A DNA stretch of 64,000 nt from Amoebophrya sp. A120. Taxonomy: Eukaryota > Protista > Dinoflagellata. Both the position numbers and the translations under genes were made by a program. Positions 1,422 to 49,100 of the stretch are shown here, piece after piece; position 1 is the stretch's first letter; each line of letters starts with the position of its first letter. The notes under the pieces were generated by a model. It was not told the origin of the DNA and did no database searches. It worked only from the letters and a program-made list of their open reading frames with translations. The stretch is from assembly GCA_905178155.1 (NCBI GenBank), contig CAJINV010000014.1, forward strand, positions 2,203,923-2,267,922, written 5' to 3'.

Positions 1422-4267
1422 TTACGCAGGACGCGTACTTTGTTTGAGCAGCAGCCCAGTTTCGTCACTAACAAAGAGCTTTGCCAATTTCGCAATGTAG
1501 TTTGTACACTTATGCGAAAGAAAGCCGGTCATTCCAATAATGGGATTCAAAACAGTGGCTGAAGCCACAAACGCGAAGCCGAATTTTTCCGCCATACGGC
1601 TTCTCTGCTTTTCCTCCTCGCCGTCAGCAGCCACACTTTTCGCAGGCTCCCAGGGAAACGATTCACCATCTGTTGCCTGGTGTCCTGTTTTCCCTTCTTC
1701 TGCTGCTGCGGGTTCTGGTTCTGGAGGACCTGGCAAATAGAGCATCACCTGCCCCGAGGGTAATGCACCACCAGACTGAGCATCTTTCTTGGTGTGTAGT
1801 ACTTTCGATTGGGCTGCGTCGACTTTCGTCCAGATGTTGCGGGCATGTTCGATCGTCCATTCTTCGGAAACCGGCTCGTCCGATAGGATTTCGAGCGCCG
1901 TTGCAGCCATTTTCAGCATCCGCTGCGGGTAGTTCCCACGCGGGATGATATCGTCACCGGCAATCACCTATGCATTGCAAATATGATGTCTGAATCTGCT
2001 GGAAAATTGCACGTCTACGTCCATGATGCTAATTCTGTTTCTGGGTCACACGAACAACAAAATCTGGTGTGTTTACATTGGTACACATTCAAAGTTATCC
2101 AGTTCTTTCGACACACTGAGCGAACTTCCACTGGAGAATAAGCATTGAAAAGCCTTCGATAGACCCGTAAGGCCTACGCGTGCAATCCAGATACGGGACC
2201 ATCTTCGACTCGAAGACGGTCCCGTATCTCAATTGCAGACAATAAACAAGCGAACTCCACTACTAGACCCAGTCGTTGTATTTGAAGTGCATATGACCGA
2301 CAGAAACGATTTCACCGGGAAAAGCTCGTCACGGTCCTCGATGATCTCCTTGCTCTTGGCCTTTTCCTTCAAATGGTGCATTTGCGCGTGGGTACTGATC
2401 ATGCCCGGGTTCGCGTGGGCGTAGCACTTGACTTCGATAGGGTGATGGTCGTGCTCATGCTTGTCCTCGGCTTGAGTATGTTTTTGTTTCTTTTGTTCAC
2501 GACGAGCGTGATCGATGTCGTGAAACACTTTCTGACCGCGCCACATCGCGTACACCAGCTGCGCTACTCCTGCACCGAGAGAGTGCCCCGTGATGATCAC
2601 GCTTTTGTAATTGGGGTGTTTCTTCAACATCAAGGCGTGCACATCATTGAACGTCTTGTAGCTGATGTAGTGCGCTGCTTTGAAGAAACCCTCGTGCACC
2701 CTTATCATCGTCTTGGGGTCTGGATTGTGTACCCTATTGTGCTCAGCACAGATGTGGTCCTCGTGATGATTGTGGTGCTCGTTCTTGTCGTGGTGTTTAT
2801 GCACGGCCGGGTGATGTGAGTTGTATTTCACCCGCCCTTCTTTGTCGACGAAATGGTGATGTTTGTCCTCGTCGCCGACGCCGAAGTCCGCCAACTTCAC
2901 CCAGCAGTTTCCGAAGTGTGCGTCTGTTTTGACGTCTCCGAGGGTTGCAGTCCCTTGAACAACCACAACAACAGCCTGCAACGAGTCGTCTCGCAAAATC
3001 ATGTACGCAGGATGAGCATGCGTTGCCGCGATATAGTGACCAAACTCCACAACGTGTGCGAAGTGGTCTACACGTCCATGGTCTCCTCCAGCCGAGTCTT
3101 TCATCAGCAGATGATGATGCTCTCCCGCTGTTGCACTTTTTATTTCAAAAGGATTTTTATCAGCACTTTTGATGACGTCAATCCGGCCAAACTTGTAAAC
3201 ACAGTAAGAGAAAACGGCTGTGCGGTAGAGTTCTGCTTTCCGCCGTTGGTCCAGACTGAAGTAAGCACGTTCATGTTGCTCGTCAACTGTGACCCCCTTG
3301 TGGTTTTCGAAGACCAAGTTGTCGCTGACGCTGATGTCGACCTCGCGATCATGGGAAGCTTCGCCCGTCCAAACTTGCAGGTGTTCGATGGAGTTGAGCA
3401 CGCCTTGGTTCTCCCAAAACAAATGTTGCAGCGTCGTCCAAAGCGAAAACTTCCATCTCGCACTCTTGATCATGTCGATGTGGTCCTGGATGAAGTGTAG
3501 GCCTGATGTCATCGAATCCACAGCTGACGCGAGCTCGGGATGCTGTTCGTTAATGATATGGTTCCCAACCTCTTCCAACACAGTGAAGGTTTGTATAATC
3601 TTCAGGTTGAACTTAGCCTGTAAGTCTCTTGCTTCTTGGACTATTTCGTCTCGGAGATTTTTCGCTGCGGTGCTGGCCCGCCCAAACCATCGTGCCGCGT
3701 ATGCTCGTCCTGTTGCGGCAGCGGCTGCTAGTACTCCTGTGGGTCCCGTTCTTGTGACTAGTAGAAACGACTCAGCCGCGCCTGTGGACTCCGTAGTTTC
3801 ATTCGTTCCTCCACCTAATCCGACCCGAGCCGTCCTCGTGTCCTCTCCGCTCCGCTCCGCTCCGCTCCGCTCCGCTCCGCTCCCAACCCCTCCACGGCAA
3901 CGCTGTAATCCCCGTGCGCCGTGGTCTTGCCATTCGCGGCAGCTCTCGTCGTGGAGGGTGCTTTTAACTCATCTCCACTAGTACTGGAGTCGCCAGATAG
4001 TGATTTCTCCACGAAACCCGACTCGCCCGCGCCTTCATCTTTGACTTCCTCATCCGTGAACTCCGCTGTTGTATCCACAATGGTCGTACGCACTTGCTGT
4101 GAGTCGTCGTGGCGGTTGTAGTGCGGAGAGCGGTCAGTGGTCAAGGCGTCAGTCGCGTTCTCCGCGAATAAGAAAGTTGGCGCTAGCTCGCCTGCTCCGC
4201 TCCACGGAAACCACCAGCCACACAGTAAGTACAGTGTGCAAGTATACGAACCTCGTGGAGGCGCCAT
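1422..4267 (-). CDS. Class 3 (fungal/DAG-lipase-like) triacylglycerol lipase, multi-exon; 3' end unresolved
   Basis: VVVVQGT, VHEGF and ITGHSLGAGVA (GxSxG) motifs in ORF 2229-3581. Removing the 1969-2293 element joins FLSV to IAGDDIIPR (catalytic Asp motif). The lipase frame is open upstream to ~3968. A signal-peptide-like N-terminus (ATG 4267) lies in another frame across the (TCCGC)7 tract. The catalytic His was not located, so further exons below 1422 are likely. Confidence 0.85.
1969..2293. mobile_element. Introner (TAT...ATA element acting as an intron) in the lipase gene
   Basis: Left end tatgcattgcaaata, right end reverse complement tatgcacttcaaata. Flanks TCACC/TGACC (4/5 match). Removal restores the frame. 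Also readable as a GT-AG intron on the minus strand (gtca-tat...ata-g). Confidence 0.85.
3846..3883. repeat. Pentanucleotide microsatellite (TCCGC)7
   Basis: Read directly; lies at the frame switch in the lipase 5' region. Confidence 0.95.
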
Positions 4268-8220: not shown

Positions 8221-9162
8221 CTACTGCATCACATCTCTGATGTGGTAATCCCTCCGCGCTTCCCGCGCAGAATAGTCCGGCTTAGTATCAGCCACGGTTT
8301 TCACGAAAGACACTAACTCATGCTCCACACCGTACAACTTCTCCACGTCTTTCACGCCCTCTAACTTCTGAAACCCCATGAGCTTCCCCGCGACCTTCTG
8401 GCTCTTCAGGTTCCCGACGGCACAGGAGATGTCGAAGTGCTGCAGCTGAAACTCTCTTCGTCCATACTCCACCAGCTGCTCCACACATTTCGTCATCAGG
8501 CCGCACCTTTCAAAATCCTGCGACAGCCAGTACCCAATGTAGCCGATCCTTCGATCGTGGTCGATGAAGTTGAAACCACAGAGACCGGCGATTGTGGCAA
8601 CTGCCGGCACGTCGACATCAAAGGATGCGACGTCATCATCATCTGCAGCCGCGCTAGAAGCAGTCACAAGAACTTCGATCACCTGCACGAAAGATCTGCC
8701 TGCTTCCCCGTCTGATTTCGTCTTGTCTAGGAAGAAGAACTCGTCTTCGAATTTTCGCACGAAGTCCAGCCAGGGCAGCCATTCGCGCAAGTGCGTCCGG
8801 TTTTTGTCGATCACTTCGAAAAGTCGCTTGGCCTCGAGGTCCTTACTGGCATCTGCGTGGCGAACGTTGCGCAGGGAAACGTGGAGAAGGCCTCGAGGTT
8901 TCGAAGAGGAGAGTGAGGTGGAGGAGTTGGCATCAGCTGCAGTGGGAGTTGAAGATGAAAACGCGGGCGAGACTTCATGTGTGAAGGACAAACTTACCTC
9001 ACCAGATGGATAGGGGTGGTGGGGAAAGTCTGGTCGTTTAGCCGTGCTCGTAATTATGGGATCCTTGATGTCACGAGGGCCAGTAAGCAAGTCAGTCTCG
9101 TCGTCAATGGCACTTCTGCGCTCGTCCATCGACCCCGCCGATGAAACTGGAGGAGGCACCAT
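8221..9162 (-). CDS. GNAT N-acetyltransferase, RimJ/RimL family
   Basis: LFEVIDKNRTHLREWLPWLD, IGYIGYWLSQDFERCGLMT and CAVGNLKSQKVA match the RimL/YdaF pattern; 313-aa uninterrupted ORF. Confidence 0.88.
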   Translation of the reverse strand: MVPPPVSSAGSMDERRSAIDDETDLLTGPRDIKDPIITSTAKRPDFPHHPYPSGEVSLSFTHEVSPAFSSSTPTAADANSSTSLSSSKPRGLLHVSLRNVRHADASKDLEAKRLFEVIDKNRTHLREWLPWLDFVRKFEDEFFFLDKTKSDGEAGRSFVQVIEVLVTASSAAADDDDVASFDVDVPAVATIAGLCGFNFIDHDRRIGYIGYWLSQDFERCGLMTKCVEQLVEYGRREFQLQHFDISCAVGNLKSQKVAGKLMGFQKLEGVKDVEKLYGVEHELVSFVKTVADTKPDYSAREARRDYHIRDVMQ

Positions 9163-9791
9163 AGTTTGATTTTCTGCTTTATCAAGGGTGCAATCTACTA
9201 AGTAAGCCGTCGAGGGTCAGGTTATTCTTAGTCTGAGAGAGAGGGGAATATCAAAATACGCAGCTGCTGGGGGGGGGCAGCAGCAGCTTGCGTTGCAAAA
9301 TTGCTTGCTCTTTGATGCGAAGGATTTGATGCAAAGAGAGCGCTCTAATGACACCGAGTGTTCCAATAAAAATGCTTCTGATGTACCACAAGAATTTTTG
9401 CAATTGTGAAGTCATTCGCTTGATGAAGCCTCTTGTTCTGCTTGGCGACACGCGTTTCGTGTGCGTCTCAGCATGTCACAGCAGAGCAGGCAGAGAAAAA
9501 TTTTGTCGAAGTCCATAAAAAAAAGACCTATGTATTCGTCCATTCGCGGTCTGTTCTCACGTATTTTTTTCCGTTCCTGAACATGGGAGACTATACACGA
9601 CGCTTCTTCACCGAAGCAGAAGTCTTTGAACTTTTCTGTTATGTTGAGCATGTCGTGCTTAGATCATCACGCAGACAGTATTTCCATCGATTCGTGGAAC
9701 GGTTTTGAGTCTGATCTTCCACAGTGAAGCTTATGGGGTCGATCCGTACTGCACAGGACCCTGGATCGAGCTGACCAGAGCCAGACAACCA

Positions 9792-12034: not shown

Positions 12035-15000
12035 TCACATCAGCCAGCAAAATATGGGCGTAAGAAAAAAGAACCAAAAGTACCGTAATCGTTTCGCATG
12101 CCTTTCCACTTTTTTCTCCGCGTCCTCTTCGAGTCCCACCATCTCCGCGTGAAACACGCTGATTTCAGGCAACAACCCAAATCGCATCCCACTGCGCCAC
12201 TTCAGGACCGCTTTTTTCAGCATTCGCTTCGCCAACGGGACACGATTGTACGAAGAAGCCGGCCGATTGAAAAGCAGTTCTCCATGTAGTGCTTCCTGGT
12301 GGGGTCGTCCACTCCGCGTGTTCATCCGCGACCAGTTTTCTTGAAGGCTTTGCTTCTCCGAGCGACTGGGCCGCAGCAACGCGAGTTTTCCTGCTTCCGG
12401 AGGAGAGCTGCAGGCTAGCAACGGTGAGAACCCCCCTTCTGCGATCGAAGACGCAGCGGAGGAGGAGGAGGATAACATCAGCGGCGTCGAAACACCTCCC
12501 TGTTCGATGAACAGCATGTGCGCTAATTTCCAACTGAGGAATCCTTTTCTCAGCAAGACAAACAAACTCCGCATCCTCGCCACGTGGTTCAGCGTTTTCC
12601 ACCGGAGCAAGCTCGCAACCTTCTCCGTCCTCACCACCCACCGCCACGCGGACAGGGAAAGCGCCTCCACGCCGATGGTACCCCGCCTCCAGCGAAAGAA
12701 GGCCCTCCTTTGCTGGTCTTTGACGCGGTCGGTTTCGGTGAGGGGAGGGGACGACGGAAGGAAAGGGCGCGGGCCGAAAGTTTTGTTTCCTTTAGATGCT
12801 GGCTGTAGTTCATCTTCTTGCGAGGTGTTCTTACTTTTGGACGACTTCGACCTTCGACGCTGCTTTCGCTCGCCTGATGTTTTCCTTTTCTTCCTCCGTA
12901 TCTCGTCGATTTTCTTTTTCGCGGTTTTGGTGGTCTGAAAGGGATTGTACTGGGACAAGATGGTCTCTATTTTGACCGCATTGTCCTCACCGTCGTTGTA
13001 GTCTTGGGGATGAGCAGTGCCACTTTCGAGAAGACGCTCATCGGCTCGACCTGGCGCGGCGCTCGACTTACTCCCTGCTTCTTTGTGACCCACCAAGGGG
13101 GAGAACGCAAGGTCTTCATCAGACTCTGGTCCGCTGGGGATACAACTACTTGAGCCGTCCGAGTCGAATGAAGACGATGTCAATTGTGGGGACGAGGTGC
13201 GAGAGTTTTCGTCATTGTCGACTTCCGCTTTGGTAGTTTCGCCAATCTGGACAAGAACGACATTTCTTTCACTCGTGGTTTTTCTCCCCCTCCTCTCTAC
13301 AGCATTCTCCCTCAACCCCGTCACCGCCAACATTGCCAATTTCCGCACGCGGAACCCCCAGGCCAATTCCGTGTGCATCTTCTGCTTCAAAAGATTCAGC
13401 AGACAAGTCATCTTCTTCGCACTTTCCCGTTGCACCACTCTCCCCGATTTCCAGCTCTCCAAACCGTGTTTCCGGAAATGTCTGTTGACAAAACGGACGA
13501 CGGCAGTGCAAAAAGGTCGCCACTTCGCGCGATACTGCCTTCCGCTGGTTGCAATCGCGGCTTGTTCTTCGGCACGGTCGAGGTGGAGCAGCCAAGAACT
13601 GATTTTGGTCGAGGAGTCCAGCACCCCGAAAGCTGTTTGCAGTCCGAAAGCGGTGCTCGTCAAATCGTGGTCGCCGGCGGTCTTGAGCAGGGCGGTTTGC
13701 GCGTCTTCATGCTCGTAATGCGCCTCGTTTATCACTCTGTGGCTGTGCCGTTCGCTGGTGGCATCAAAAGGACGCAATGCGGTGCTTTCTGCAACATTTG
13801 TGTGTTCAAGATCGTCTACTTCGTTTTCATCCTCGCAGAGTTGCTCCTTTCGCGATACGTAAAACCGCCAGCGGTGGAGGATTCTCGGTGCGCGGTTCAA
13901 AAGGAAAAACCTGTTTGCAACTCGTGTGTACTTTCCAACCAAAGCACTGTCCTGCCACCAGTGGCTGTTGTTTTTCAGGTGTTCTTCAAATTTGGATGTA
14001 CGACGGTGGTCCGCTTTAGCGTTTTTCAGAATGTTGCTGCTCTTGGAAAGCCTATTCGCTACGCGTCCTGGAGGTGGGGGTGGTGTTGCGCTACAAGCGG
14101 TTCGGGTGAGAAAGTCCTCTCGATGATTTGGCATGCATTCGAACATGCTAGTACTCGCAGGCTCCGCGTAGAAGAGCTGCTGAGGCGGTTGGTGAACAAC
14201 CGGGTGTCGTGTTTCATCCGCACCTCCTTCTGCGGCGACGAAGTTCATCTGGGCGCGACCTCTTGTTGTATTTTTGCTCCTGAGAATGTCCGGTGTCGCA
14301 GACAAAGAGGAGGGGTTTGATGTCATGTTGCCGCTACTGATTCTGTCGCCAGCGTTCATCCTGCTGAATGGACCAACGTATGGAGAGTTATCATCTTGCT
14401 CCTGTCGTAGAAAGTGAAAATTCTCGTCGCCAGTTCTGTTCAAGAAATCGTTCACAACATCCAGGTCTTCCCTCTCCTTCGCCCGCAGCTGCAGCTTTGC
14501 CCGGGAAACTTGGAGGGAGGAAGTCCCGCCCACTGAAAAGGTAAGATTTCTCTCACTGGTAAGAGCTGAAGACGGTGTCATATTACTCGCTTCCGTTCTT
14601 TTACTCGGCGTCGATTCGACACTGGACAGCATTCCCTGCTTTGGCTGAGGACCGAGATAGAGTGGCTGCTGCTGTTCCTGTCGAGAGAATGTAGTTTGGC
14701 GTTGGTCTACTTGCTTGTTGTTTCGCGCATGTATTGCCAGCCTCTTCTGCCTGGTAACCGTCTGTCCATCTTTTGCGTAGAAGTTCCCCATCGAGCTACC
14801 TTCTGCAGGAGCTCCGGCAAAATTCATCCGTTCTGTACCTCCTTGCCGGTACTTGAGCAGTTCTTCCAGCACGGCAATAGCTTCAGGCTCAACATCTGTG
14901 ACAACGTCGTGATCAACAGCATCTTGTTTCGTAGTAGTTCCTTGATGATGGAGGTCATGCGGCAGGACCCGCTGATGATCTTCCTGGGTACGCTCATACG

Positions 15001-15691
15001 CGGTATACCCTCCACTTTTTGTAGGCTCCATGCGATAATGAAAACGTCGTCCAGCTGCAACATGTTGATGCCCAGCAAGCGCCAACTGTCCCTCGGTGCG
15101 CCGCGCGATCTTCCCCGCACTGCGCTTGGCGAAATACGCGGACTGTTGCGCAAGAGAGACATGCTGTTCGTGTGTTTGATCGACATCCTGATGATAATCC
15201 AGCTTGTTCCAGTCATGATCGTCCACCTCGTGATCCACTCGCTCTCCGTCCTCGTCACTGGCGTTGTCCGCGAGAAATTTCTGCAATTTGCTCGAAAAAT
15301 AACTGGTCCTGTATGCGCTCCTCGTGGGGTCGTTCAGCTCCCTCCGTTTCTGCAAGGAATGGTCGATGAGCAGGTCTTCTTCCCAGCACGTGGACAGCAG
15401 CTTGTCTCGGGAGTGCTTCAGCTGAAACGAAGGTCCGGCTCCTCTTGCTGCGAAAGTTGCACTAGATGGTGGAGTTGCGATTGCAGATAGCACAACCTGT
15501 TGCTGTTGGTCGTGATATTTTTCTCGCAAGAGGAGCGCCTCCTCGCGGGCGAATAGTTGACTATCAGTTCTTGCTTCACGACCTCCCCGACGCGGTTCTT
15601 GCGAGGTGGACGGAGCCAGACCATGCGCGATTTTTCCGGGTGGAAACTGCTCGGCCCCGGCTGCGGAGGAAGAGGAATAGGACGATCGCAT
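12035..15691 (-). CDS. Hypothetical 1218-aa protein; large transposon inserted 26 bp upstream of the ATG
   Basis: Long ORF with basic W-containing helical segments near the C-terminus; probable GT donor near 12083. Confidence 0.7.
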   Translation of the reverse strand: MRSSYSSSSAAGAEQFPPGKIAHGLAPSTSQEPRRGGREARTDSQLFAREEALLLREKYHDQQQQVVLSAIATPPSSATFAARGAGPSFQLKHSRDKLLSTCWEEDLLIDHSLQKRRELNDPTRSAYRTSYFSSKLQKFLADNASDEDGERVDHEVDDHDWNKLDYHQDVDQTHEQHVSLAQQSAYFAKRSAGKIARRTEGQLALAGHQHVAAGRRFHYRMEPTKSGGYTAYERTQEDHQRVLPHDLHHQGTTTKQDAVDHDVVTDVEPEAIAVLEELLKYRQGGTERMNFAGAPAEGSSMGNFYAKDGQTVTRQKRLAIHARNNKQVDQRQTTFSRQEQQQPLYLGPQPKQGMLSSVESTPSKRTEASNMTPSSALTSERNLTFSVGGTSSLQVSRAKLQLRAKEREDLDVVNDFLNRTGDENFHFLRQEQDDNSPYVGPFSRMNAGDRISSGNMTSNPSSLSATPDILRSKNTTRGRAQMNFVAAEGGADETRHPVVHQPPQQLFYAEPASTSMFECMPNHREDFLTRTACSATPPPPPGRVANRLSKSSNILKNAKADHRRTSKFEEHLKNNSHWWQDSALVGKYTRVANRFFLLNRAPRILHRWRFYVSRKEQLCEDENEVDDLEHTNVAESTALRPFDATSERHSHRVINEAHYEHEDAQTALLKTAGDHDLTSTAFGLQTAFGVLDSSTKISSWLLHLDRAEEQAAIATSGRQYRAKWRPFCTAVVRFVNRHFRKHGLESWKSGRVVQRESAKKMTCLLNLLKQKMHTELAWGFRVRKLAMLAVTGLRENAVERRGRKTTSERNVVLVQIGETTKAEVDNDENSRTSSPQLTSSSFDSDGSSSCIPSGPESDEDLAFSPLVGHKEAGSKSSAAPGRADERLLESGTAHPQDYNDGEDNAVKIETILSQYNPFQTTKTAKKKIDEIRRKKRKTSGERKQRRRSKSSKSKNTSQEDELQPASKGNKTFGPRPFLPSSPPLTETDRVKDQQRRAFFRWRRGTIGVEALSLSAWRWVVRTEKVASLLRWKTLNHVARMRSLFVLLRKGFLSWKLAHMLFIEQGGVSTPLMLSSSSSAASSIAEGGFSPLLACSSPPEAGKLALLRPSRSEKQSLQENWSRMNTRSGRPHQEALHGELLFNRPASSYNRVPLAKRMLKKAVLKWRSGMRFGLLPEISVFHAEMVGLEEDAEKKVERHAKRLRYFWFFFLTPIFCWLM

Positions 15692-15717
15692 GGTTGGTGA
15701 CAGAGGACTTTCAATGA

Positions 15718-31500: not shown

Positions 31501-31558
31501 ACTGCGCTTCATATTGCGATTGCATTATTTGTGACCAGAAGAACTACATCAATGTTCG

Positions 31559-34981: not shown

Positions 34982-35013
34982 ACATGCAGACAAAGTGCCC
35001 AAGCTTCTAAGCG

Positions 35014-35404
35014 GCGAAGCCTCGAAACGCCGGAGGAAGCAGCGAAGCCTCGAAGCAGCGAAGCTTCGAAGCAGCGCAGCCGCGAAGCAGCGCAGCCCCG
35101 AAGCCTCGAAGCAGCGAAGCCTCGAAGCAGCGACGCCTCGAAGCAGCGAAGCAAGCCACGAAGCCTCGAGGCAGCGAAGCCTCGAAGCAAGCCGCGAAGC
35201 CTCGAAGCAGCGAAGCCTCGAAGCAGCGAAGCTTCGAAGCAGCGAAGCCTCGAAGCAGCGAAACCTCGAAGCCTCGAAGCAGCGAAGCCTCGAAGCAGCG
35301 AAGCCTCAAAGCAGCGAAGCCTCGAAGCAGCGAAGCCTCGAAACAGCGAAGCCTCGAAGCAGCGAAACCTCGAAGCAGCGAAGCCTCGAAGCAGCGAAGC
35401 CTCA
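35014..35404. repeat. 8/16-bp minisatellite (cgaagcct / cgaagcag)
   Basis: Read directly. Confidence 0.95.
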
Positions 35405-36560
35405 GGTTTGTCGCTGCGCCGGACCGGAGCGACAAGTCCAGGAGTCCCCGGACCCGTCATTTTGTCGTTGCGCCGGACCGGAGCGACACAACCAGGGGTC
35501 CCCGGACCCGTCATTTTGTCGTTGCGCCGGACCGGAGCGACACAACCAGGGGTCCCCGGACCCGTCATTTTGTCGTTGCGCCGGACCGGAGCGACACAAC
35601 CAGGGGTCCCCGGACCCGTCATTTTGTCGTTGCGCCGGACCGGAGCGACACAACCAGGGGTCCCCGGACCCGTCATTTTGTCGTTGCGCCGGACCGGAAC
35701 GACAAATCCAGGGGTCCCCGGACCCGCCATTTTGTCGTTGCGCCGGACCGGAGCGACAAATCCAGGGGTCCCCGGACCCGTCATTTTGTCGTTGCGCCGG
35801 ACCGGAGCGACAAATCCAGGGGTCCCCGGACCCGCCATTTTGTCGTTGCGCCGGACCGGAGCGACAAATCCAGGGGTCCCCGGACCCGCCATTTTGTCGT
35901 TGCGCCGGACCGGAGCGACAAAATCAGGGGTCCCCGGACCCGCCATTTTGTCGTTGCGCCGGTCATTTTGTCGTTGCGCCGGACCGGAGCGACAAATCCA
36001 GGGGTCCCCGGACCCGTCATTTTGTCGTTGCGCCGGACCGGAGCAACAAATCCAGAGGTCCCCGGACCCGCCATTTTGTCGTTGCGCCGGACCGGAGCGA
36101 CAAATCCAGGGGTCCCCGGACCCGTCATTTTGTCGTTGCGCCGGGGCGGAGCGACAAAATCAGGAGTCCCCGGACCCGTCATTTTGTCGTTGCGCCGGAC
36201 CGGGGCGACAAAATCAGGAGTCCCCAGACCCGTCATTTTGTCGTTGCGCCGGACCGGAGCGACAAAATCAGGAGCCCCCGGACCCGCCAATTTGTCGCTG
36301 CGCCGGACCGGAGCGACAAAATCGAGGGTCCCCGGACCCGCCAATTTGTCGCTGCGCCGGACCGGAACGACAAATCCCGGGGTCCCCGGACCCGCGAATT
36401 TGTCGCTGCGCCGGACCGGAGCGACAAATCCCGGGGTCCCCGGACCCGCGAATTTGTCGCTGCGCCGGACCGGAACGACCAATTCGGGGGTCCCCGGACC
36501 CGCGAATTTGTCGCTGCGCCGGACCGAAGCGACAAATTCAGGGGTCCCCAGACCCGCGAA
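35405..36560. repeat. 54-bp minisatellite, ~21 copies with graded divergence
   Basis: Unit approximately tttgtcgttgcgccggaccggagcgacaaatccaggggtccccggacccgtcat; 18-aa periodicity in the ORF track. Confidence 0.95.
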
Positions 36561-36561
36561 G

Positions 36562-36657
36562 TCCGGTGCCGGACCATGGCCGCCGAGCCGGTGCCGGACC
36601 ATCGCCGCCAAGCCGGTGCCGGACCATGGCCGCCAAGCCGGTGCCGGACCATGGCCG
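36562..36657. repeat. ~23-bp GC-rich tandem repeat (gccggtgccggaccatggccgcca-type), ~4 copies
   Basis: Read directly. Confidence 0.85.
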
Positions 36658-38690
36658 GGCCCGCCGCCCGGCGCCAGAACGCGGCCCCGCCGGTGCCAGC
36701 ACGCAAGATGGCGGCAAAGGCCAACCTGCCAGCCGCGCCGGTGCCGGATCGTGGCCAAGCCAGTCTGGCGCTTTCAAAATCGCAGGCGGATGGGCCTGCC
36801 TGTGCTGAAGCGCCGGAACCGATTTTCCACAGATGGACGCTGAGTCTGTGCTACTATTCATCTAGCGGAATACTATTAAGTCTGCAGGTTACTGGACACG
36901 GGAAGCGGGATAAGGCTAGTTATTGCTACTGCTAGTGCTATATCTTTAAAAAACTCCTCAGGCGCCTGCCGAGTCGACCTAGTGCTAGTAATATCAAACG
37001 ACCACGTCCGTGCGTGCCTATTCAGACTATGCACCACGCAGGGACCGGCGAGGTCCGGGAGCAGCCCGAAAGAACGGCATGTAGGCATGTACATTTACAG
37101 GTGAGTGAAAATGGCAGCTGCACCTGCAGTACAGTTCAAGAACATCAACCGCATAGATATGATGCACTTGAGAAAATCTTGGTAATGGGCCCCCGGGTAG
37201 GACGCGAGATAGTATCAGTGGTAAGACATGCTGACGAAAAGGAAATAAAAACAAAACAGGTATATAAATATTGTAGCGCAATCCAGAGCTTGCAAATGAG
37301 TTAGAGTTAGTATTAAAGTCAATCGATTGAAAAAAAAAAAAACGAAGAAAAAGCTACAAGACCTTCTTGGGTGAGCAGGTGGGGGGAGTAGTGCAGCAAA
37401 CGGGTAGGCGAAAGGGGATGAAGAGGAAGAGGTAGAGATTTACGCTAGATGTGGATACGGCACTTCGAAGGGGGCGTGCAATTGATTTCCAATAGTTAGG
37501 GCTAGGGGGGGCACCTGCGCATGCGTTGAGTTGTCCTTGTCTTCGTCTGAGATGAGGTTGCGTCTACTTGACCACCAGCTGTGATCGTAAGCGTGTGAAG
37601 CTCCACCTCCCAACAGTGTCAGTGGTGAATCAGAACCACGTAGAAGTTCATCATCATTGCGGAGATGGTGGGCGACTGCTCCTTAGTTACCTCACAAAAA
37701 CACTCACGCTTTCGCTTGTTTCCCACAAACAAAATATTTTCTCTCGCCTTTAAGTCTTGCGTAACTACACTCAGGTAACTCCACAGTTGCAAATGCTTTT
37801 GTGCCCTCCGAGGGCATCTGTACTCGAATTCATCGATAAAATAAAATCATCACGACAACAGCGACCGTGCAAGGAAAATTCCTCGTCGTGGTTTAAGAGT
37901 AAAAGATCAACAGGCTCAGGTTCTCACCAGCGACTTTTCCTTTTGTTTCATTTGTAGTTTCGCTCATCTCGCTGCTCACTTTGGGATCATGATTAGTGTA
38001 CTGCTCTCGTCGCTGCAGATGCAGTCTGCTCTCGTGATTGCTCATACATATTTTGGTCGAGTTCAAGACTTGGAACACCTTGCTTTCTAGTTTCATTATT
38101 ACCTTAACCTTTATCATCCCTCAGACGAGAAGGAGAAACAACAAAAAGTAGAGTGGTGCTAACGTGTCATTATTTCCGCTTACAGGGATAGCAACGAGCT
38201 GCTCTTGGCTAACATGTCCGAAATTATCTGCCTACATCTCGATTCAAGCGACATCATACAGGAAACTTTTTTTCGGAATGGATAGTGATTACAGCATTGC
38301 ACATTATTATAGATGGTCGCGCAATAAGAATCATATTAATTTACAATGTTTAATTTCTCAAAAGCCCATGGCTGGCTTGCTACAATCATAGACTCCAACA
38401 TTCTGAGTAAGAGAGAGAGTCAAGAATCTACAACAAATTAATTTGCTTTTGCATCGAATGCGACAGCGAGGATAATAGCTAGAAAACTCTCGTTTGCACT
38501 GCAACATTCTTAATCTGGGATTTTCTTTTTTTTTTGTACAGAAATCAATTTCACAAAAGTAAGTAGTGTACGTGCGTCAGCGAGATAGAGCCTCTACTAC
38601 AACTTCAATACAAGTAAAATCGGTACAACTGTGCTGCGAGATAGTGATAAGGTACTGCTTCGTTCCAACAACATCTTCCTCGTGCTCGCT

Positions 38691-41403
38691 TTATGGATCG
38701 ATCCCAAACCCGCCTTGACTTTCGTCGACCGCGGCTCCTTCGTGGTCCGAGCTGGGCGCCTCTTCATCTGACATCACCGCGCCCTGCTGTTGCTGCACCG
38801 TGATGGCACTGCTTCCGTGGTTCACCGAGCTGGAGCTCGCAGACGTGCGAGCCGCCGCCGATGCACTGTTTCTGCTCCCACCCGTGGATCGTCCCGAAGT
38901 AGAACTAGTACTTCCATTCGAGCCGCGGCTGCAGTAACCGGCAAAAACCGCATAGACGCCCATCAGTGCGAGGACCACGAGAAACACGAACAGTCCGATG
39001 GTCGCGGCGCCGGTGTCCAGGGTGAATTTGCTCGCGGTTTCGTCTCCTCCGGCTATGGTGGTACTGGTTCCCGCGTCGCCGTTCGCCAACTCCTCTCCGG
39101 CTTGGATTGGCTTCATCTGTTCTTGCTTTTTCTTCTCCACTTCGTACACTTCCTTTGCTTCGTATGCAATGCAACATCACTTCTGCACGGCAGAGAGGAC
39201 ACGTAAGTACAAAATAATGCATCGCAGAGACGAGAATAGTCTCGTCGTTGTCATGCAGAGACTGTTCCATTTTGATCTTTGGTACCTGGTGTACGTCTCC
39301 TCCAGCGCAGGATTTTTTTCACTGTGGATACCTCATTCAGCTGTTTCAAAGTGCACTTTTCCGGCTTGTTTTCCTGGTCTGCGGAGAGGTTAAGAACCCC
39401 ATCGGCAAACTCGGAGACACTCGGGTCGTCGGCCGCAACGATGCTGTTTTATTTGGTGAAGATGTGTGACTGCTTATATATACGCTTTTCTTGTTTTTTT
39501 TTCCCGGAATTTATTTGCTCCTGGTAGTAGAACTACACGACCATAGCATAATCGAGAAAATCTGGTTCTGGCATCTATCTTCCAGTAGCAACGAACAATG
39601 AAGTACTCTTCAACTACATCAAAAAACCAACATCGATACAGACTGAAGCCATCGGAGTCCCAGAATTTCTTGGTGAGACACTTCTGTCCCGAGGCCAGCA
39701 TGGCCCAGCCGACGCCGTTTTTGACCTTGACGCGGTCTATGGAAGTGTCAGAAACGAAATATGGCAAAATCGAAAAATTTGCGATGCACAAAATCGAATC
39801 CAGTTAGAGCCTCAGTCTCCAAGCGCCGCATGACAAATTTCGAGAGCACCCAGATCCAGTCTGTCATGCTGTTTGGGCAAAGAAGACTGCTCCTGTCGTG
39901 TTACTCTGGCAGCGCATTGCATTGCCCTAAACAGGCTTGCGATCGGTCTCATTTGCCTGCTCCCCAATACAGGCCCTACGTTCCCTACATTTTACGCAAC
40001 ACAAGTTTTTCGATTTTGTCGATTTAGGTTCTGACGCTTCCATACGGTCCGTGTTCACCGTGTCCGCCTCCACCTGCTGCTGCTCCCCGAGCGGCACCGG
40101 GCCGGGACCGCTTCCCGTATGAATTGCGAAAATATCGTGGCACTCGTATAAATGCATTACAAATTTTCTCAGCATAAGAAATGAAATTTGTGATGCGGAT
40201 TTACCTTGAGTAATGCATGATTGCTATACGAGCGCGATACTTTTGCACGGGATATCCCGCCCGGGCCGGCAGCTGCTGTTTCAGTGGCGGCGCCGTGTTC
40301 ACCACCGGCTTCGGCATCACCACCCCCGCGTTCGCGACTGCCTGCGCCTTCGGAACCGGCGTCGTGGTTTCCGGTTTCGGGGGCGTGGGGGTCATCTTGC
40401 CGACGGGCGCAGGTGGCAGACGAACCGCGGTGGGCGGAGGCCCGGCGGCGACCGCAGCGGTAACCCGCTCTTTTTGTTGCAGAAACGCGGTTCCGGTCTC
40501 GTCCGTAGAAGAAGTCGTCTCCACGACCGGTCTTGGCGCAATAGAGCGAGATGAAGTTCTTGTCCTCGAAGGTTGTTCTTTCGCGCTTTCTGCACTAGCG
40601 TCTTTGTTGTCAAACCCGAAGCCGATTTGGATCTTTTCCGCAAGCTGGATCAAGGTCGAGGCCAGCGAAGAATTGTTGTTTTCGGTGTCCTCGTCAAAGC
40701 CGGTCTGCAAAAACGCGGAAAACGCGTTTCGCTCGCCCACCCGGTTTCCCTCCACCTGCTCGTCCCCTGCCGAAAATGTGCCGTCGTTGTTTCGTCCCCC
40801 AGCTCCTGCTCCCGTATTAAAAGAAGCGCTTGTAGTACCACTTCCCGGTGGTCCATTTGCGGAGAGAAATAGCGCTGAGGAAGAGGAGGCTGCTTTGATG
40901 TCACTTTCGTGCTGCAGCCCGCTGCCCGAAGAACTCAAGCTGCGGGCCGAGGATGCGCCTTCAGTGGTGCCGCCTGCGCCGTTCGTTGTTTCAAAGGCCT
41001 GCCGCTCCGCAGCGAGTTCTTCGAAGTGCTGGCCACCGCCATTGGCGTTCGAAGAACCGGAGGACTCGAGGGAGGTTCTGTGGTTCGTTGATTGTGGCGG
41101 CGTCCGCTTCAACATCGCGAGAAACAAAACAAAGACAAAAACATTTTTTGGACGTGCATAACAAACTTGACTAGTCGCGGCCAAAGGTAGTTCCGCTACA
41201 GCTAGTCTTACAAACAACAAACAAAAACACAACGATGAACATCGTCGTCTGTCCCGTGCTCCGCTGCAAGAGCATCCATTTCCATTAGTACCTGCTGTGT
41301 CGATTGGTTTTCCCGCGAAACCTCGGGTAAGCAAACGCCTGCTGCAGCAGCTGGTGTTGTAGTCCCGGAGCAAAGCCACCAGTGCTCGCCGCGAACGCGG
41401 CAA
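38691..41403 (-). CDS. Probable single-pass membrane protein, multi-exon
   Basis: Introner removal joins PARAG|SGPGPV and NTDR|VKVKNG. P/T/S-rich stalk; C-terminal hydrophobic helix IGLFVFLVVLALMGVYAVFAGY. Start codon and junctions in 39150-39640 uncertain. Confidence 0.7.
39738..40044 (-). mobile_element. Introner family 2 (307 bp)
   Basis: tatggaagtgtcagaa ... ttctgacgcttccata; perfect DR CGGTC; removal restores the frame. Confidence 0.92.
40118..40254 (-). mobile_element. Introner family 1 (137 bp)
   Basis: tatgaattgcgaaaatatcg ... cgatacttttgcacgggata; perfect DR TCCCG; removal restores the frame. Confidence 0.92.
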
Positions 41404-43604
41404 AAAGTGCTGATTTCGTGCTGGTCCTCGTGCGGGGCATCATCTTGTACTTTCCGCTCCTACTTACGGTAACGGCTGGTGTTACTCTACGGAGAGTGGA
41501 TTTTGATGAAGCAGTAGCACATTGGTAAAAAGACATCTTCATCTTCTGCCTGGATGTAGTACCCCTTGCAGTTCTGCTTCGTCGTCGGTCCAGCAGTTGA
41601 GCAGGAGGAGAAGCAGGCGTGGACGAGGAACTCGATGTTGTTGTAGTTTTTGTCTCTAAGATCTTGCACACCGGCAAGGCGCCTTGAAACGATGGTGGTA
41701 AAACCTCCGAGCAAGGTGAAGCTGACATTTTGATATGCCTCTCAACACCACGCAGCTATTTGATGTTCCTGAAACTTCGACACTGGTGACTTGTTCGAAG
41801 ACGGAAGACCACAATCTCGTCAGAGTCCGCGGGCGCGGCGTACTTGGAAAATATTATATCTTTTTTTCACTTACTAGCACAAGAACCTCTTCCTTCACTA
41901 CACCTGCTCCTGCGGTGTCTAGTGCTGTGTGGTACGTTAAGGTTACGTTGAGATCAAGATGGAACAAAGCCTCTGCTGGATGCAAGAACTACTGATCGAG
42001 CTGCTGGACTTCGAGCAACAAGCTCCAGTCAACACGGCCAACATACAGACAGAGTAAAGATCGATTCGATGTCTCATCAATCTCAATCTCTCTGGTTTCG
42101 GGTCTTCTCTCTACGAAAAAGGAAACGACAAGACTACACCTTGGCTGTAGAACCAAGACCCTTGCGATCTTCACGAGAAACGGACATATTCCCGGCGACG
42201 ATTTAGATTTTTCAGAGCGTACGACTTGGACTTCAGACGATGCACAACAATTGTTCAGAATTGTTCAGGAGTCTAGGCACCATTGATAATATCACGGAAA
42301 AAACCGAATCTGTACGTAGAGAATTGATGTCTTCTTAAATGCAGGAGGCGCGGGGTCAGCCAGCCAGCACCGCACGCTAGGAACAAACGCGAGATGATAG
42401 CCGCGCTCATGTTCATCTCGTCCAGCAAAAATTGCGCAGCTTGCTTTCAACAGCGCAAGCATTTCTAGATGGTTTTTTTGAGGGGGATGAATGACATACT
42501 TCCGTAAAAAGGGGCTTTCTACTCAGAGCCTCTGAGGTCCGCGACCAAAGAGGTGTCAAGAAGACAGGAGAGTCATTCGCCCTCTGTTTCGATAGATTTT
42601 TCTTCTTTTCGCAAACATAAGTAGAAAAAAGGTTTTTGGAGCTGCTGCTTTCCATTTCGCTTTCCACTTGCACCAATGGACTGACATGATAAATGAAGTA
42701 GGGTCTGTGTCAATATGTGAATAAAATGTAGTAAACTACCTACCAGGTTCAGCCGCACTTGCTCGATGTTCGACGCAGATAAACTAGAAGTTTGCGTTAA
42801 CGCGGACTTGTCACTAGTTTATGCCAGTGAAAATGTGCAGATCTATGTGATGGTCGCTGACAAAGAGAATCATAGCTGTCGCATCCATGTTGAAAATATT
42901 GAGGTAGGTACTTACTAGTCGCAAAATTTCATGAAAGTGAAGCTGACATGGATTGTACAAGGGCTACTAAATTTTCATCACGAATAACACAATACCACAA
43001 CGAACTATGGTGAATATATGCTCAAACTGCGGGGTTTGTCGCGACATATCCTGAAGAATCAATGTCAATGGGGCGGGCCTAGCAAAAACGAAGTTCGTGA
43101 GCTCGATGCACTTCTTTGCGAAAAAAAGATGCTGTCAATATGGTAAAAAGAGAAGCCTCCGGTGTTCCTGGTTGCAGCCGTTTTTGCAGATGTTCTTGAA
43201 GCGTTGTTTTCAAATGAAGCCATTCGTTGTTGTTGTTCATCACGAATAAAAATGAGAAGAATACGACTAGCGTGCGTTGAGCTCGTTTAGAACGATCTCC
43301 CACGCAGCATAGACCGATTGACATACTTGTTAGAAGTAAGCAGAAGCACGAAAATGATCATGGCACTGAAAGACGAGACATGGAAGTGTATTATAGTTAA
43401 TGAGGAGGTTTTTGTTTTTTAGGGTCATCAATTATACAAGCGCCGGCGGTTTGCTCCATCTTTCTCGCCGTTCCAAAATCGTCTGCGAAACTGTTCGCAA
43501 GATTAGTGAAAGACTCCGGGATGTTGAAGTGTCTCAGCCGCGCGTCGTTTAGCTTATGTTGATGAAAAAAACGTCAAAGCTTCCGAAGCCGAAGAGTTGT
43601 TCTT

Positions 43605-44768
43605 TTACAAATCAGCGTCAGCCGGCGCGGCTTCGGCTTCCGGAGCGGCAGCTTCGGGAGCGGCAGCCTCCGCCTCGGCCTCGCCTTCGGCCGGCGCGGC
43701 GGCGTCCTCGGAGACAACCTCCGGAACGCCGGACTCCAGCTCCTCGGAGACGGTAGCCTCGTCCTCCTCATCCATGGCGGCGGCGGCCTCGTCGTCCATC
43801 TCCGCCAGCGGGTCTTCCTCGGGCATCTCGCCTTCCTCGCCGCCCATCTCGCCCTGGAGCTGCGACATCATGTCCGCCGGAAAAACTTCCTGGAAGATCT
43901 CGGTCAGAGTCTCCGGGGGAAGAGTGGCAAGAACCTTGTCCAGCTTCTCCTCGGCACCCTCAACCTGCTCGCCGGCCAACTGTATAAGTAGGAATTCATT
44001 CAGTATAACGAAAGTAGAAGATGAGCTTGACCAGTAGAGTGGCTATAATTTCCATGCAGCCATGCAGCTGGTGGGGAACTACTTCGCTCTCCGTCAATTA
44101 TTAGTTTTTTACCTTAGTAGAAAAGCCTGAAATCTATATACCAGTCTCTTCAGGAGATCCTTGATTTCGGTGAGTTCTTCGGCAGAGGGCGGTGCTGGCT
44201 CGCTATCCATGTCATCCAGTTCCTCATCCTCGGACTTCTCTACTGCGGCCTTGGGTTCCTCCTCCTTTTCCTGAGTAGTTGCGGCAGCTTCAGCCTGTTC
44301 CTCAGAAGTAGCGACTTCAGCCTGTTCAGCATCCTGAGGGGTGGTTGTCGTGGTTTCGGTCGATGTTTCGGCCGCCACAGCCTCCTTCAACTCCGCATCA
44401 ACCTCAGTGCGCAGGGCCGCGTCGACGTCTGGTGTTTTTTTGGCATGCGAAATTGCATCGGTAGATCATGCTTTCTGTAGCCATGCGATCCTGCAGTGCG
44501 AGTGCTGCTCCTCTTTATCTTGCAAGACATCAAAAGCAAAAGCAGGAAAATAAGTTTTCTGAATAATCAACTCAACTACAATTTGTTGCAACAACATGCT
44601 GGTCGTGCGCAACGCAGCATATTAACAGCTGATTTCATCTGTGATGAAGAGAGAAGCAGCATTATTATAGTACTTACCCGTGGCGGCAGGAGTGCTGATC
44701 TCAGCCCGGACGAAAGTGGCGAGGACAGCGGCGGAAGCGCCGACAGCAAACTTGGAGAAGGCAACCAT
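43605..44768 (-). CDS. Secreted highly acidic Ala/Glu-rich protein, about 3 exons
   Basis: Signal peptide MVAFSKFAVGASAAVLATFVRA, then a gtaag donor; exons at ~44140-44435 and 43605-43981; GC-ending codon bias in the last exon. Confidence 0.75.
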
Positions 44769-46135
44769 TTTGTTTGGTGTTGGGTTTTTAGAGATGAAAA
44801 TACGATGAAATCGAGTCGTTGAACAAACTTGTTGAAAAGGTTCTTGGATAAATCCAGGCTTCAAATCACGGAGCAAAAACTACTTTGAAGAACAGAAGGC
44901 TGTCGTTAGTATTTTCGTTTGGTTTTATTCGGTTCGTTGGTCAAAACAAGTTAGTATCGCGGTGTAAATGGGTTTAATTTCAAAGAACGATCAAGTCGTG
45001 TGTGCGATTCGTTAACAAGTTGTGGACAGGTTGTCGTCAAAAGTAGAGTGGCTGGTCATTTACGATAATTTTAATTTGTTCCTATGATCATGATCGTTCT
45101 ACAATAATTTTCTCGTACGTGGCAGTGCAGGATCGGTGTATGCGAGAGTAAGGATTTTTCAGTCGTGGAACAGAACCTTCTTCTTCTTCTCTTCGCGTTT
45201 CCATTTTCACAACCCTCTCTTACTTTACTATCACGAGCAGCCGACAGCAGGTGCGCCACTAATTGTTGACGTGGTCTCACCGAGAAATATAATTTTAATT
45301 GCAATTCTTCTACTAACCGAGGTTTATCCTCTTCGACTTCATGCATGCACGTGACCGACAGTAATCTACTTTTGGAAAAGCCGAGACAGCAATTACTATC
45401 ACAGTAGAACTGGTACAACCGACAAGTTAGCAACACTTCTTGCACCGACGATACTCGGTCATACGTTCGGTCCCCGAGGAGCTGAAAACAATTGTTGCAC
45501 CCTACTGGTATGATCAAGAACTTCACGATTTTTTCGTAATACACATCATCAGAAGACACGACAGTAGAGACGAGACACAGGGCGAGACCACGTGTTGAGT
45601 TGCTGTTTTAGACTGGTGCTGGACCACGATAGAAGTGGGACTCTGCAACAATAATTAGGATTTTTGCTTTCTTTAAATTAGTGGTTCGTCCACTATGTTT
45701 AAACCTTGCAGTTTCAAGTGCAGCTTGAACATTCTTGTCACACGGTTTACACCAGTAAAATCCCATCTATAATGTTGTAGAAGAGAGCTCGCTTCACATG
45801 AAAATATCCATACACGATCGGAAAAAAGAACATACAAGAACTCTCAGAAGTGTAGTACTTACATGGCTCTACTTACAAATCAACCACTCAGCCACAGGTC
45901 GCGAAGAACGATCAACTTCAAGAAGATGAAAAAAAAACGCGGCAACCAGACGAGTGCAAGGACACACAAATCTTTAACAGCGCATCCTCTCCTGTATGTA
46001 GGTGGAGGGAGGACGAAGAGCTGTGTTGAGCATGATCCTCTTGTATTTTAATCCAGAACATCAAACCTGCTGAAGAAAAGAAACGCCAGCCTCAGGTGCG
46101 GCTTGATTCCAAAGCGACGCGTCTCGAAGAAGACT

Positions 46136-49100
46136 TTATCGTTTTTTTCTTCTCCCGGGCGGTTTCCACTCCTCATCACCACTGTCGCTATCGTCCTCGC
46201 TTCCGCTGACAATCCAGCTGAGCGTTCTTTTCTTCTTTTTCTTCTTAGGGTTGGTTACTCCACCTGCGGCCTTACCAGCCAGCGCTTTGGGTTTCTTCTG
46301 ACCGCCTCCGAGTGGAGCTGCTGCTCCTACCTTCGATACTTTCGGTTTCGCGGTACTAGCTGCTGTTGCGCCGCCAGCAGCAGGCGAATCTTCTTCTTTT
46401 CCCGCCTTGTTCTGCCCGCCCTTCTTACCTTTCCCCTTTGCGAGCAGTGCCTGCTCTTTCAGCATCTTGGACTTCAACACGCTGGCCTTTTGGTTGCTGG
46501 TGAAGTTCGGAAATAGAATCTTGATTGCCGCATTGTAGTCCTTTTCCGCCTCGGTCACAGCCTGTATCCCGACCTTGTTCAGCTTCTCATCCAGGCGAAA
46601 GTACCGCTTCTTCAGCTTTTTGATGTACCTCTTCGGCATGGTAAACTGGTTCGCGCACCGCACACAGGTCCGGTTGAAACACTCCTGCAGCACCTGGAGG
46701 GCGGCGAGGGGAAGGTTCTTAAGCGGTTTTTCTTTTTGTTCCATTTTCTCTCTACTGCTGCAGCTTCCCGATCTGCTCGCAGCCTGAAGATGTTCATCTC
46801 TGGAAGAAGTTCTCGATGCTGCAGTTGATGCACGGGACGACGATGCAGATAAACGCGAGGAACCCGCCGAGGACACGGTATACTCGTGAAAGTGCAAGCG
46901 AAAGTGCTCGGAAATTTGAAAAAACGTCATCTCCGGGTTCAGGTCGAGGAGTTGATGCATTTTCAGCTGGACCGCAGACCGGTCTAGTGGTGGATCTGGT
47001 TGAAGATTTATTGGCTGAAGAGTCTGTGCCTGCGCAGCTCCCCCCTCGTCCATCATTTTTTCCTCCTTCTGCTGCACAATCCTCGCGCGCTCCAAGTCGT
47101 GGTGCTGCAGGCTGTGGTTGAGCTGTTGAAGCGGAAGCGGTAGGGGTCGAGTTCTCTCCGTTTCTAGGGGTTTCATAGACGCGGTTCTTGTGAAGGTGAT
47201 CTCATCTTCATCGTCTTTGATCGGAAGCACCGTTGCTTCGCCATCCGCACTAACTGCAATGCGCGGCGGGGGACGTCGACCTCCGGGGGTAGGCTTCTGT
47301 CGAAGACCAGAGATGGTTGTGCCAGAAAGCTCCGCCTTCCTCTTAGCCTCTTTTTGCAACGTGACACAATCCCGGCCCTGGAACAGCGTCGGTGTGCGCA
47401 GACGACATCCCGGCTCGTTTAAAACTGTGTAGTACCGCATGTGCTCGCACTGGTCTTTCAGTTTGTGCATCGGCGTATGCAACACAAATCTACATCTACC
47501 GCAGCACAACTCATTGAAAATACGTCTTCAGAAATTTTGACTACAACCTTCAGAGCCGGAGACAAAAATTGTTGTCCTACTAGGAGAATAGCAAAATTTT
47601 TGTCATGCTTGACTCTGGGACAGCGACAGTGTGAAAAAGACTCCGTTTCTCCTTCTACGTCGTGCTCGTGTTTTACGGTAAATCCATAATGAATTCTCTC
47701 TGCATACGGAAACGGAGATACATGTTTTGACGGTTTGGGCAACACAGCCAGCTTTTCCCGACTCGCCGCCGCGTCGTCGTCGACCAAAGTCTTTTGCCCG
47801 GGCCGATCGGAGGTTGTGACAATGTGCGCGGGGTCGACACAGGTTTTATGCATTACAAAAGTATTGTATCGTACTCGTATAAATGCATTACGTATTTCCT
47901 CAACAGCATGAGAGAGAAAATTTGTAATGCTGATTTACCTCAAGAAAAAGATTTGTAATGCATGTTTGCAATACGAGTACGATACTTTTGCACAGGATAG
48001 GTTTTCAATAACTGCAAATCCTCCACCCCCAAAATCCCCACAAAGCTGTGCGGGTCGAAGGAGTAGCGGCCGTGGCAAATACCCCGGTACTCCGGGCGGT
48101 GGTAAATATGCAGAAATTTGGGCAGCTTCTTCCGCGAAGGCAGCTGCCGCCGCCGCCCGAACCCCCGGCCTCGGCGAGCGACCGTCTTTTTGCCGTTTAT
48201 TTTCCTACTGTAATCGATGAACACCGTGCCGTTGAGTTGCGCCATACGACTGAGGAACGAGGGCCGGAGAAAACCTTGGTAGATGTGCCGGTTGCTCGCG
48301 TCGTACCAGTATTTGTTGGGCTCCTCCTGGAGAACGTGCGTAGTTGCGTCGGGCGGACGCGCAGGTACAACTTGTACAGCAGAAGACGAGGCGGAGCTGC
48401 AGCTGCGTTTTGATGTCAACGTGGCTTGGTTCTTTTGGCGAACCCCGAGGACCACCGGAGGTTTATTGTGCCGCGCACTTGAGGAAGACGATGTTGATAC
48501 GAAACCGACGAATTTTTGCCCCGTGGTCCGGGCCCGGGGCCTTTTCAGCGAAGTAGAAGTACTTATTGAGGCACCTCCAGAGGGCATCAATCCAGAGGGC
48601 GGAAGTTGTCCTGCATATTGCGGAACAAGCACTGGTGGGGCCTGGAGCTGCTGTTGCGGCTGGATGAACTGGCGGCCAGAAAAAGCCGCTTGCGGCTCTA
48701 ATCCTCTTCCTGGTCTTGCAGTTGCACCTCCAGGTGGTGATCCTACTATGGGAGGCACGGCTGATTGCATTCCAGATACAGGAGCTTCAGCCGGCGGTCG
48801 TTGTACGGCACTGTAGTAGTTCGCAATCAGTCCCTGTTCGTAGTCCACCTTGCCACAGCTGACGCAGGTCTGCAACTTTTTCACCACCTGGTGCGGAGGT
48901 GGCGCCAGCGAAACATGGTGACCACCTGCTGCTGCTGCAGCCTCCGGACAAGTCAAATCAACACCGTTCCTCGCGGCTTTGCTTTCGCGCAAGGCGGCAA
49001 ACGCAGCGGAATACAGCTGTTTTTTCTTCAAAAATGGTTCACACGTAAAGGAAAGCTTGTTTGTTTTCACAAACCTCGCCAGCCCGGCTTTCCAGCGGCA

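Follow-up and report, generated by a model that had tools for sequence, protein, structure and literature searches.

A 12.8-kb element with a candidate transposase gene among hairpin-ended introners of Amoebophrya sp. A120

The genome of the marine parasitic dinoflagellate Amoebophrya sp. A120, whose gene models were derived from transcripts, has been described as holding more than 60% non-canonical introns and 29,850 repeated introns (PMC7789003). These introners have inverted repeats of 8–20 nt that start with TAT, a run of A, direct repeats of 3–5 nt and hairpins (PMC7789003). How they move and how they are spliced have been open questions since that study (Farhat 2021), which found no A120 transposase: it reported two putative transposases in strain A25 only, ‘ruling out’ general transposase-mediated mobilization (PMC7789003), and the available text of its supplement does not contain the word ‘transposase’. 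A later survey (Gozashti 2025; PMC12130899) left A120 families mostly as unclassified terminal inverted repeat (TIR) elements; among the 58 families in its dataset file 8, a superfamily is named only for fam38 (Ginger-like, 808 bp, 5-bp target-site duplication (TSD), TA/TA termini) and fam65 (Mutator). In the accessible parts of both papers, no autonomous DDE element is assigned to the A120 introners, and a published description of such an element was not found in a literature search conducted outside Repbase and subscription journals. Here we describe a 64,000-nt stretch of the A120 genome (contig CAJINV010000014.1, positions 2,203,923 to 2,267,922 of the forward strand; hereafter the window, in whose coordinates all positions are given) in which short TAT...ATA elements interrupt open reading frames (ORFs) around and within a 12.8-kb element with similar ends. 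The short introns themselves are already known in A120; new here is the 12.8-kb element with its candidate transposase gene, gene B.

The ten short elements listed by the initial annotation all proved real. Each starts with TAT and has an ATA end 120–329 nt away, with 9–13 of 14 terminal bases complementary. All 20 ends begin with TAT and 14 have AAA starting at position 10–12, matching the end form of A120 introners (TAT, about seven variable bases, at least three A). An exact 5-nt direct repeat flanks five of them, all on the minus strand: 33334–33484 (AACCT), 33554–33882 (GCGCA), 39738–40044 (GACCG), 40118–40254 (CGGGA) and 47847–47999 (AAACC). The repeat is imperfect at the minus-strand elements 1969–2293 (GGTCA/GGTGA, 4 of 5 bases) and 47476–47706 (TTCCG/CGCCG, 3 of 5), and keeps at most 2 of 5 bases at three plus-strand introners of gene B, 22543–22662 (2 of 5), 22992–23119 (0 of 5) and 24712–24842, a near-perfect hairpin. 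The 5-nt repeat is therefore exact in half of the listed elements and imperfect or decayed in the other half. The list was also incomplete, as two further clear elements lie at 20173–20297 (plus strand, exon 1 of gene B, repeat decayed) and 32166–32437 (minus strand, exact repeat ACAGC), and 16500–16615, a short hairpin element inside the 12.8-kb element without a flanking repeat, is probably another.

Chance expectation was gauged on end pairs chosen by inverted-repeat match alone (TAT..ATA, at least 9 of 14), with 200 Markov shuffles as control. Pair number itself was barely above chance (220 versus a shuffle mean of 175 and maximum of 219). Exact 5-nt flanking repeats, found at 5 of the 220 pairs, namely 33334, 33554, 39738, 40118 and 47847, exceeded it (shuffle mean 0.22, maximum 3), and none of the 220 had a repeat of 6–8 nt. 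A scan with an end profile, which is circular, gave 63 hits at threshold 7 versus 30 by chance and provides leads only. Two multicopy families were evident in the window. Family 1 comprises 33334, 40118 and 47847 (75–82% identity, with 82% between 33334 and 47847) and family 2 comprises 33554 and 39738 (71%). Both have members in opposite orientations (33334 versus 40118 and 47847; 33554 versus 39738), all within minus-strand genes. In contigs of run X1, DNA depth summed to about 100,000 for the bin that covers 33334 and 33554 and to about 44 elsewhere, in a comparison that leaves out 1969, 47476 and 39738–47847. Coding-strand hairpins were predicted with z of -2.6 to -13.3 for the ten elements and -1.2 for 32166 (40 shuffles each). 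A 10-nt motif picked by eye from this window, TYTGYVATGC, has 43 matches in it where shuffles give 2.2; 12 short elements account for 22 of them, the rest of the 12.8-kb element for 18 and two other element-like stretches for 3. Both National Center for Biotechnology Information (NCBI) proteins that match exons here at 100%, P0001 and P0003, carry the name Amoebophrya sp. A120, which places the elements in that genome. Judged against the available text of PMC7789003, the short elements are the same as the published introners in genome, ends, repeats, hairpins, non-canonical junctions and multicopy families, and the ten are a rediscovery of that class.

The 12.8-kb TAT...ATA element (15718–28508, plus strand) is a candidate autonomous transposon. 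Its ends are inverted repeats, and the target duplication, AATGA at 15713–15717 and 28509–28513, is 5 nt long and exact. Its end pair (15718–15796 and 28430–28508) starts with TAT, ends with ATA and fits the TAT-N6-A-run consensus; the TIRs are identical over 29 nt, agree in 54 of the first 60 columns and show patchy likeness to about 290 nt. The element sits upstream of a 1,218-codon minus-strand host ORF, 26 nt from its first ATG (15691), a position that led us to reject the idea that it interrupts host coding sequence. It lies within an otherwise minus-strand block and holds the clearest plus-strand genes of the window, together with three of the ten named elements (22543, 22992 and 24712). 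Besides gene B, it includes gene A (16650–19079, plus strand), a multi-exon, Lys/Asp/Glu-rich gene modelled by eye, and gene C (27124–27861, minus strand), represented by a 246-codon exon; neither has a Pfam family. The depth of X1 DNA indicated a single-copy interior (42–60) and end bins about 10 times deeper (519 and 552). One X1 contig joins 15977 to 28245, with the letters between not known, and likely derives from an internally deleted copy elsewhere. Joints in several DNA contigs connect 28508, 28509 or 28510 to 33334, bringing the right end of the large element near the start of a family 1 introner and suggesting that short relatives of the 12.8-kb element occur among introners in other genes.

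Gene B (20069–25641, plus strand) was modelled with nine introns and 1,286 codons without an internal stop, and four of the nine introns are TAT...ATA elements (20173, 22543, 22992 and 24712). Its candidate motifs are a first Asp in QDTST (21041), a second in GDQE (21435), GxHHRxxN (21507), TRW (22347) and a Glu in QENHW (23772). A search with exon 21201–21737 returned 13 protein matches, two of which, P0013 and P0014, were set aside as spurious hits to repeat proteins. Relatives include the full-length P0004 (CAD7952400.1) in Amoebophrya A25, P0012 and P0016 in AT5.2, and unnamed fragments; AT5.2 holds at least three divergent copies of the family. The gene B model can be aligned with P0004 along its length (27%, E 3e-112), and the junction left by removing the 24712 element with 5 nt is gapless in alignment to the A25 and AT5.2 relatives. 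All four full-length sequences retain the motifs D-[GT]-S-[TV]-K, D-Q-E, G-x-H-H-R-x-x-N, R-W and S-D-x3-E-x2-W, the three acidic ones among them, and these follow one another as they would in a DDE transposase that has a helical insertion. Pfam returned no match for the gene B exons or for P0004, P0012 and P0016, PDB sequence searches gave none, and Foldseek and VIA-align found nothing meaningful with models that were poor (predicted local distance difference test (pLDDT) of 39 for a single exon and 44 for P0004). The best family-bearing look-alikes of P0004 in the Atlas were hAT-type at 0.76–0.79, with 9 of 10 sharing family or clan, which is a lead only, as the scores fall below 0.9. A longer relative was not found with exon 23121–24368, and scans of metagenome and viral data found no DNA surrounding relatives of gene B; locus L001, on a bacterial contig, matched out of frame by chance and was discarded. 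Gene B quite probably encodes a DDE transposase.

The closest described transposons to the 12.8-kb element are those of the hAT superfamily, with its hAT5 subgroup, and of the related P, MuDR and Kolobok groups. Shared traits are inverted ends, a 5-nt duplication as in hAT5, candidate D..D..E residues whose second Asp is followed by a His motif, and a long helical insertion. Typical hAT duplications are 8 bp and those of hAT5 are 5 bp; the present element, known from one insertion only, combines 29 identical terminal bases with AATGA. The TRW and last-Glu motifs of gene B presumably correspond to hAT motifs. Compared with hAT, P, MuDR and Kolobok, however, gene B and its relatives are 1,150–1,290 residues long and lack a Pfam hAT domain (no Pfam hit, such as PF05699, in the exons or in P0004, P0012 and P0016), and the element is 12.8 kb long with two extra genes and TAT...ATA ends. 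Moreover, the C/DxxH that defines those transposases (PMC3706591, in its accessible part) is replaced after the second Asp by GxxH(R)xxN, in which the His is kept and C/D has become Gly. Gene B likely works like a hAT-clade transposase, yet we do not class it as hAT because the C/DxxH motif is missing.

Whether the large element mobilizes the introners is a finely balanced matter. It could be the autonomous member whose gene B moves these short elements, a proposal that, as read from the sequence, we hold evenly poised. The same even judgement applies to its fuller form, in which the 12.8-kb element would be the autonomous parent of the A120 introners and gene B would encode a DDE transposase of the hAT/P/MuDR clade that is divergent, occurs across Amoebophrya, bears GxxH and is invisible to Pfam. 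By this account the enzyme would have dispersed introns by the tens of thousands, each defined by its hairpin and independent of orientation, and four of them would have invaded gene B itself. Several points weigh against this. What the short elements have in common with the ends of the large element is limited to their first bases and to the 10-nt motif, with no blastn match; gene B lacks a Pfam or PDB match; and it has GxxH where hAT, P, MuDR and Kolobok have C/DxxH. It is possible, if somewhat doubtful, that another transposase, such as that of the Ginger-like fam38 or an IS3EU-like one, moved the short elements, with the 12.8-kb element one of several families or gene B domesticated or captured. 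The 5-bp TSD and TA/TA termini of fam38 (PMC12130899, dataset file 8) fit this alternative, as do the single-copy interior of the large element, the family 2 ends TATGG...CCATA that resemble the TAYGG..CCRTA of IS3EU (PMC12730594, in part) and the little RNA-type cover inside the element. The last point carries no direction, as contigs of runs X7–X9 have almost no cover and no joint within or across the 12.8-kb element and are evidence neither for nor against gene B expression or 12.8-kb splicing. Against another transposase stand the TAT-N6-A-run ends, clean 5-nt duplication and shared 10-nt motif of the large element, and the divergent copies in AT5.2, as expected of a transposon. An IS3EU-like enzyme in particular fits poorly, since IS3EU duplications are 6 bp, none of the 220 pairs has a 6-nt repeat and only 33554 and 39738 end in TATGG..CCATA. 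Mobilization by gene B is directly testable, as the 12.8-kb element supplies a candidate enzyme that is intact and agrees with the introners in its ends and in the length of its duplication. If gene B is the mobilizer, its A25 and AT5.2 relatives predict strain-specific ends.

All ten named elements break the reading frame when kept, through stops in every frame at three and a frame shift at seven, and removal of each with 5 nt yields a continuous frame chain at all ten, in agreement with the initial annotation. At 1969, in a lipase class 3 gene, removal rebuilds SVIAGDDIIPR, identical to P0001. A search with the lipase ORF retrieved two A120 proteins; P0001 matches both exons at 100% and runs continuously through the junction, and P0002, a paralog, is colinear across it. 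P0003 corresponds letter for letter to part of the ORF that results when 47847 and 47476 are deleted, each with 5 nt. The FLZ finger said to be split by 33554 was rebuilt as a motif; as a domain it drew only a Pfam zf-FLZ hit of E 0.13 on the upstream exon.

Junction dinucleotides divided the elements evenly. At 33334 and 47847, GT/GC donors and AG acceptors are absent in all six registers, as had been noted from the sequence, and the GT..AG pair of 33334 exists on the antisense strand only. No frame-preserving GT/GC/GA-AG pair was found at the ends of these two or of 33554, 40118 and 47476, and 20173 likewise lacks a canonical pair at its ends. In-frame GT-AG is present at 1969 and 24712 (registers -4/+1) and at 22543 and 39738 (-1/+1), and GA-AG at 22992 (-4/+1). 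As a class, therefore, the elements are not major spliceosomal introns by donor and acceptor, five having such a pair and five not. A residue F in P0003 at the 47476 junction fits registers -3/+2 to 0/+5, none of them canonical, which argues against a fixed -4/+1 register for all elements. Because five sites lack a frame-preserving pair and one family occurs in both orientations, the element ends are likely the junction signal at 33334, 33554, 40118, 47476 and 47847. Ordinary splice sites suffice at 1969, 22543, 22992, 24712 and 39738, so the general claim that ends rather than dinucleotides set the junctions is supported at the first five sites and unneeded at the second. In the accessible data for fam2, the largest A120 family, 6,681 of 9,716 annotated donors are NT and 6,598 acceptors are AN (PMC12130899), a pattern that cutting one base beyond TAT or ATA would produce if the family is of the TAT type. 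GT-AG introns at 16897–17168, 17747–17894, 20412–20592, 21086–21200 and 33156–33300 start with GTATA, that is, G plus the introner TAT, and those within the 12.8-kb element also carry TYTGYVATGC; such introns may have arisen from introners through decay and the gain of an AG.

Removal from RNA was seen at contig level in run X7, whose contigs are of RNA type by guess. One contig of 3,336 nt (depth 18.9) skips two minus-strand GT-AG introns, 31447–31609 and 33156–33300, and also 32161–32437, 33329–33484 and 33549–33882, corresponding to 272+5 (277), 151+5 (156) and 329+5 (334) nt at 32166, 33334 and 33554. Each element skip has five ambiguous letters, no other letters occur in the listed pieces of the contig, and no coding-strand register at the three sites offers a GT/GC/GA-AG pair. 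Joining the pieces in this way yields an open frame of 585 codons that includes the FLZ-like finger. Contigs of run X9 showed the ordinary two GT-AG introns only, and raw RNA runs X4–X6 gave 1, 6 and 2 reads on 14600–34500, the organism not being in them. Skipping of element plus 5 nt, as predicted at non-canonical junctions, is thus direct for 33334 and 33554, as for the additional 32166, and comes by annotation for 1969, 47476 and 47847. In DNA, a gap-free X1 contig (30326–33356) retains 32166 and the left end of 33334, and DNA-type contigs of X1 and X3 retain the elements, with no joint of the element-plus-5 kind among the rows listed.

We regard it as very probable that the ten elements are introners of A120 resembling miniature inverted-repeat transposable elements, likely inserted by a transposase and removed from transcripts with one duplication copy. 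A cut-and-paste transposase likely inserts the element and creates the 5-nt target duplication, the element would be removed from the transcript together with one copy, and the paired inverted ends likely bring both junctions together for a relaxed host spliceosome. A hairpin as the splicing signal is proposed from the predicted folds and from removal of one family in both orientations. Since the opposite-orientation members 33334 (by contig) and 47847 (by annotation) both undergo removal, the element is unlikely to carry a branch or acceptor signal tied to one strand and likely to carry a symmetric one. Cutting by a hairpin-guided, relaxed spliceosome is a step we favour slightly, because half of the sites keep canonical pairs and the A120 spliceosome is nearly complete, with 83 of 89 proteins present and U1 not detected (PMC7789003). 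Several points weigh against the overall proposal. Only 2 of the 10 named elements are skipped in RNA-type data, in one contig from one sample that may not be independent of the annotation, and 22543, 22992, 24712, 39738 and 40118 are supported by frame or homology only. A non-spliceosomal enzyme would explain the indifference to orientation no less well, and short repeats with hairpins are a recipe for skipping by reverse transcriptase (PMC4176328, in part). The available main text of PMC7789003 does not treat orientation, lariats or template switching. Opposite-orientation copies of one family offer a clean pair for setting hairpin against strand-specific sequence as the splicing signal.

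The elements may instead be true introns cut and joined by a non-spliceosomal, structure-recognizing nuclease and ligase, as proposed for euglenid nonconventional introns, which we consider unlikely. The junctions without GT/GC/GA-AG pairs in the X7 contig, removal of one family in both orientations, ends predicted to pair and the undetected U1 speak for such an enzyme; in-frame GT/GA-AG at half of the ten elements speaks against it, as does the inverted and direct repeat layout in 15% of canonical A120 introns (PMC7789003), which suggests a continuum, and no such enzyme has been identified. Euglena introns, as far as described in the accessible text of PMC12501133, share non-GT-AG junctions and ends joined by base pairing, but the ends here are transposon inverted repeats with target duplications, and the signature N3CDG...CH'GN5-6|R is not found, with no C-D-G at intron positions 4–6 of the coding strand in any of six registers of the ten elements. 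Micromonas and Aureococcus introners, also non-autonomous transposons turned introns through the target duplication, carry or co-opt canonical splice motifs, according to the available text (PMC11282704; PMC7789003), whereas half of the A120 elements here have none. That the skips are reverse-transcriptase template switches, with elements staying in mRNA or genes dead, is highly improbable: direct repeats and structure do favour this known artefact (PMC4176328, in part) and all three X7 skips have perfect 5-nt repeats, but one unbranched contig combines three successive skips with two GT-AG introns and a 585-codon frame, the spliced form is colinear with the lipase paralog in one case and with the A25 and AT5.2 relatives in that of gene B, and 47476 is annotated as removed despite its imperfect repeat. 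Still more remote is excision from DNA in expressing cells in the manner of ciliate internal eliminated sequences, for which transposon-like ends and a transposase-like gene could be cited. The retention of elements in X1 and X3 contigs, although contigs drop rare variants, argues for removal from RNA, as does the absence of ordinary introns from the skipping contig.

Other features of the window include two element-like stretches. A 670-nt element at 53813–54483 has 130-nt inverted repeats of 91% identity, two TYTGYVATGC copies, a left TAT, a right ATG rather than ATA, and a GC-AG pair at -4/+1 on the minus strand. A TAT...ATA candidate at 39163–39330, between minus-strand ORFs, has one motif copy and no flanking repeat. 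Tandem arrays at 34766–36760, built of an A-rich 26-nt unit, a self-complementary unit of 54 nt present in about 21 copies and a 25-nt unit, have long stop-free frames. On the minus strand, an ORF at 8221–9216 encodes a GNAT acetyltransferase, and an intronless-looking ORF of 1,434 codons at 54728–59032 has DEAD and Helicase_C domains.

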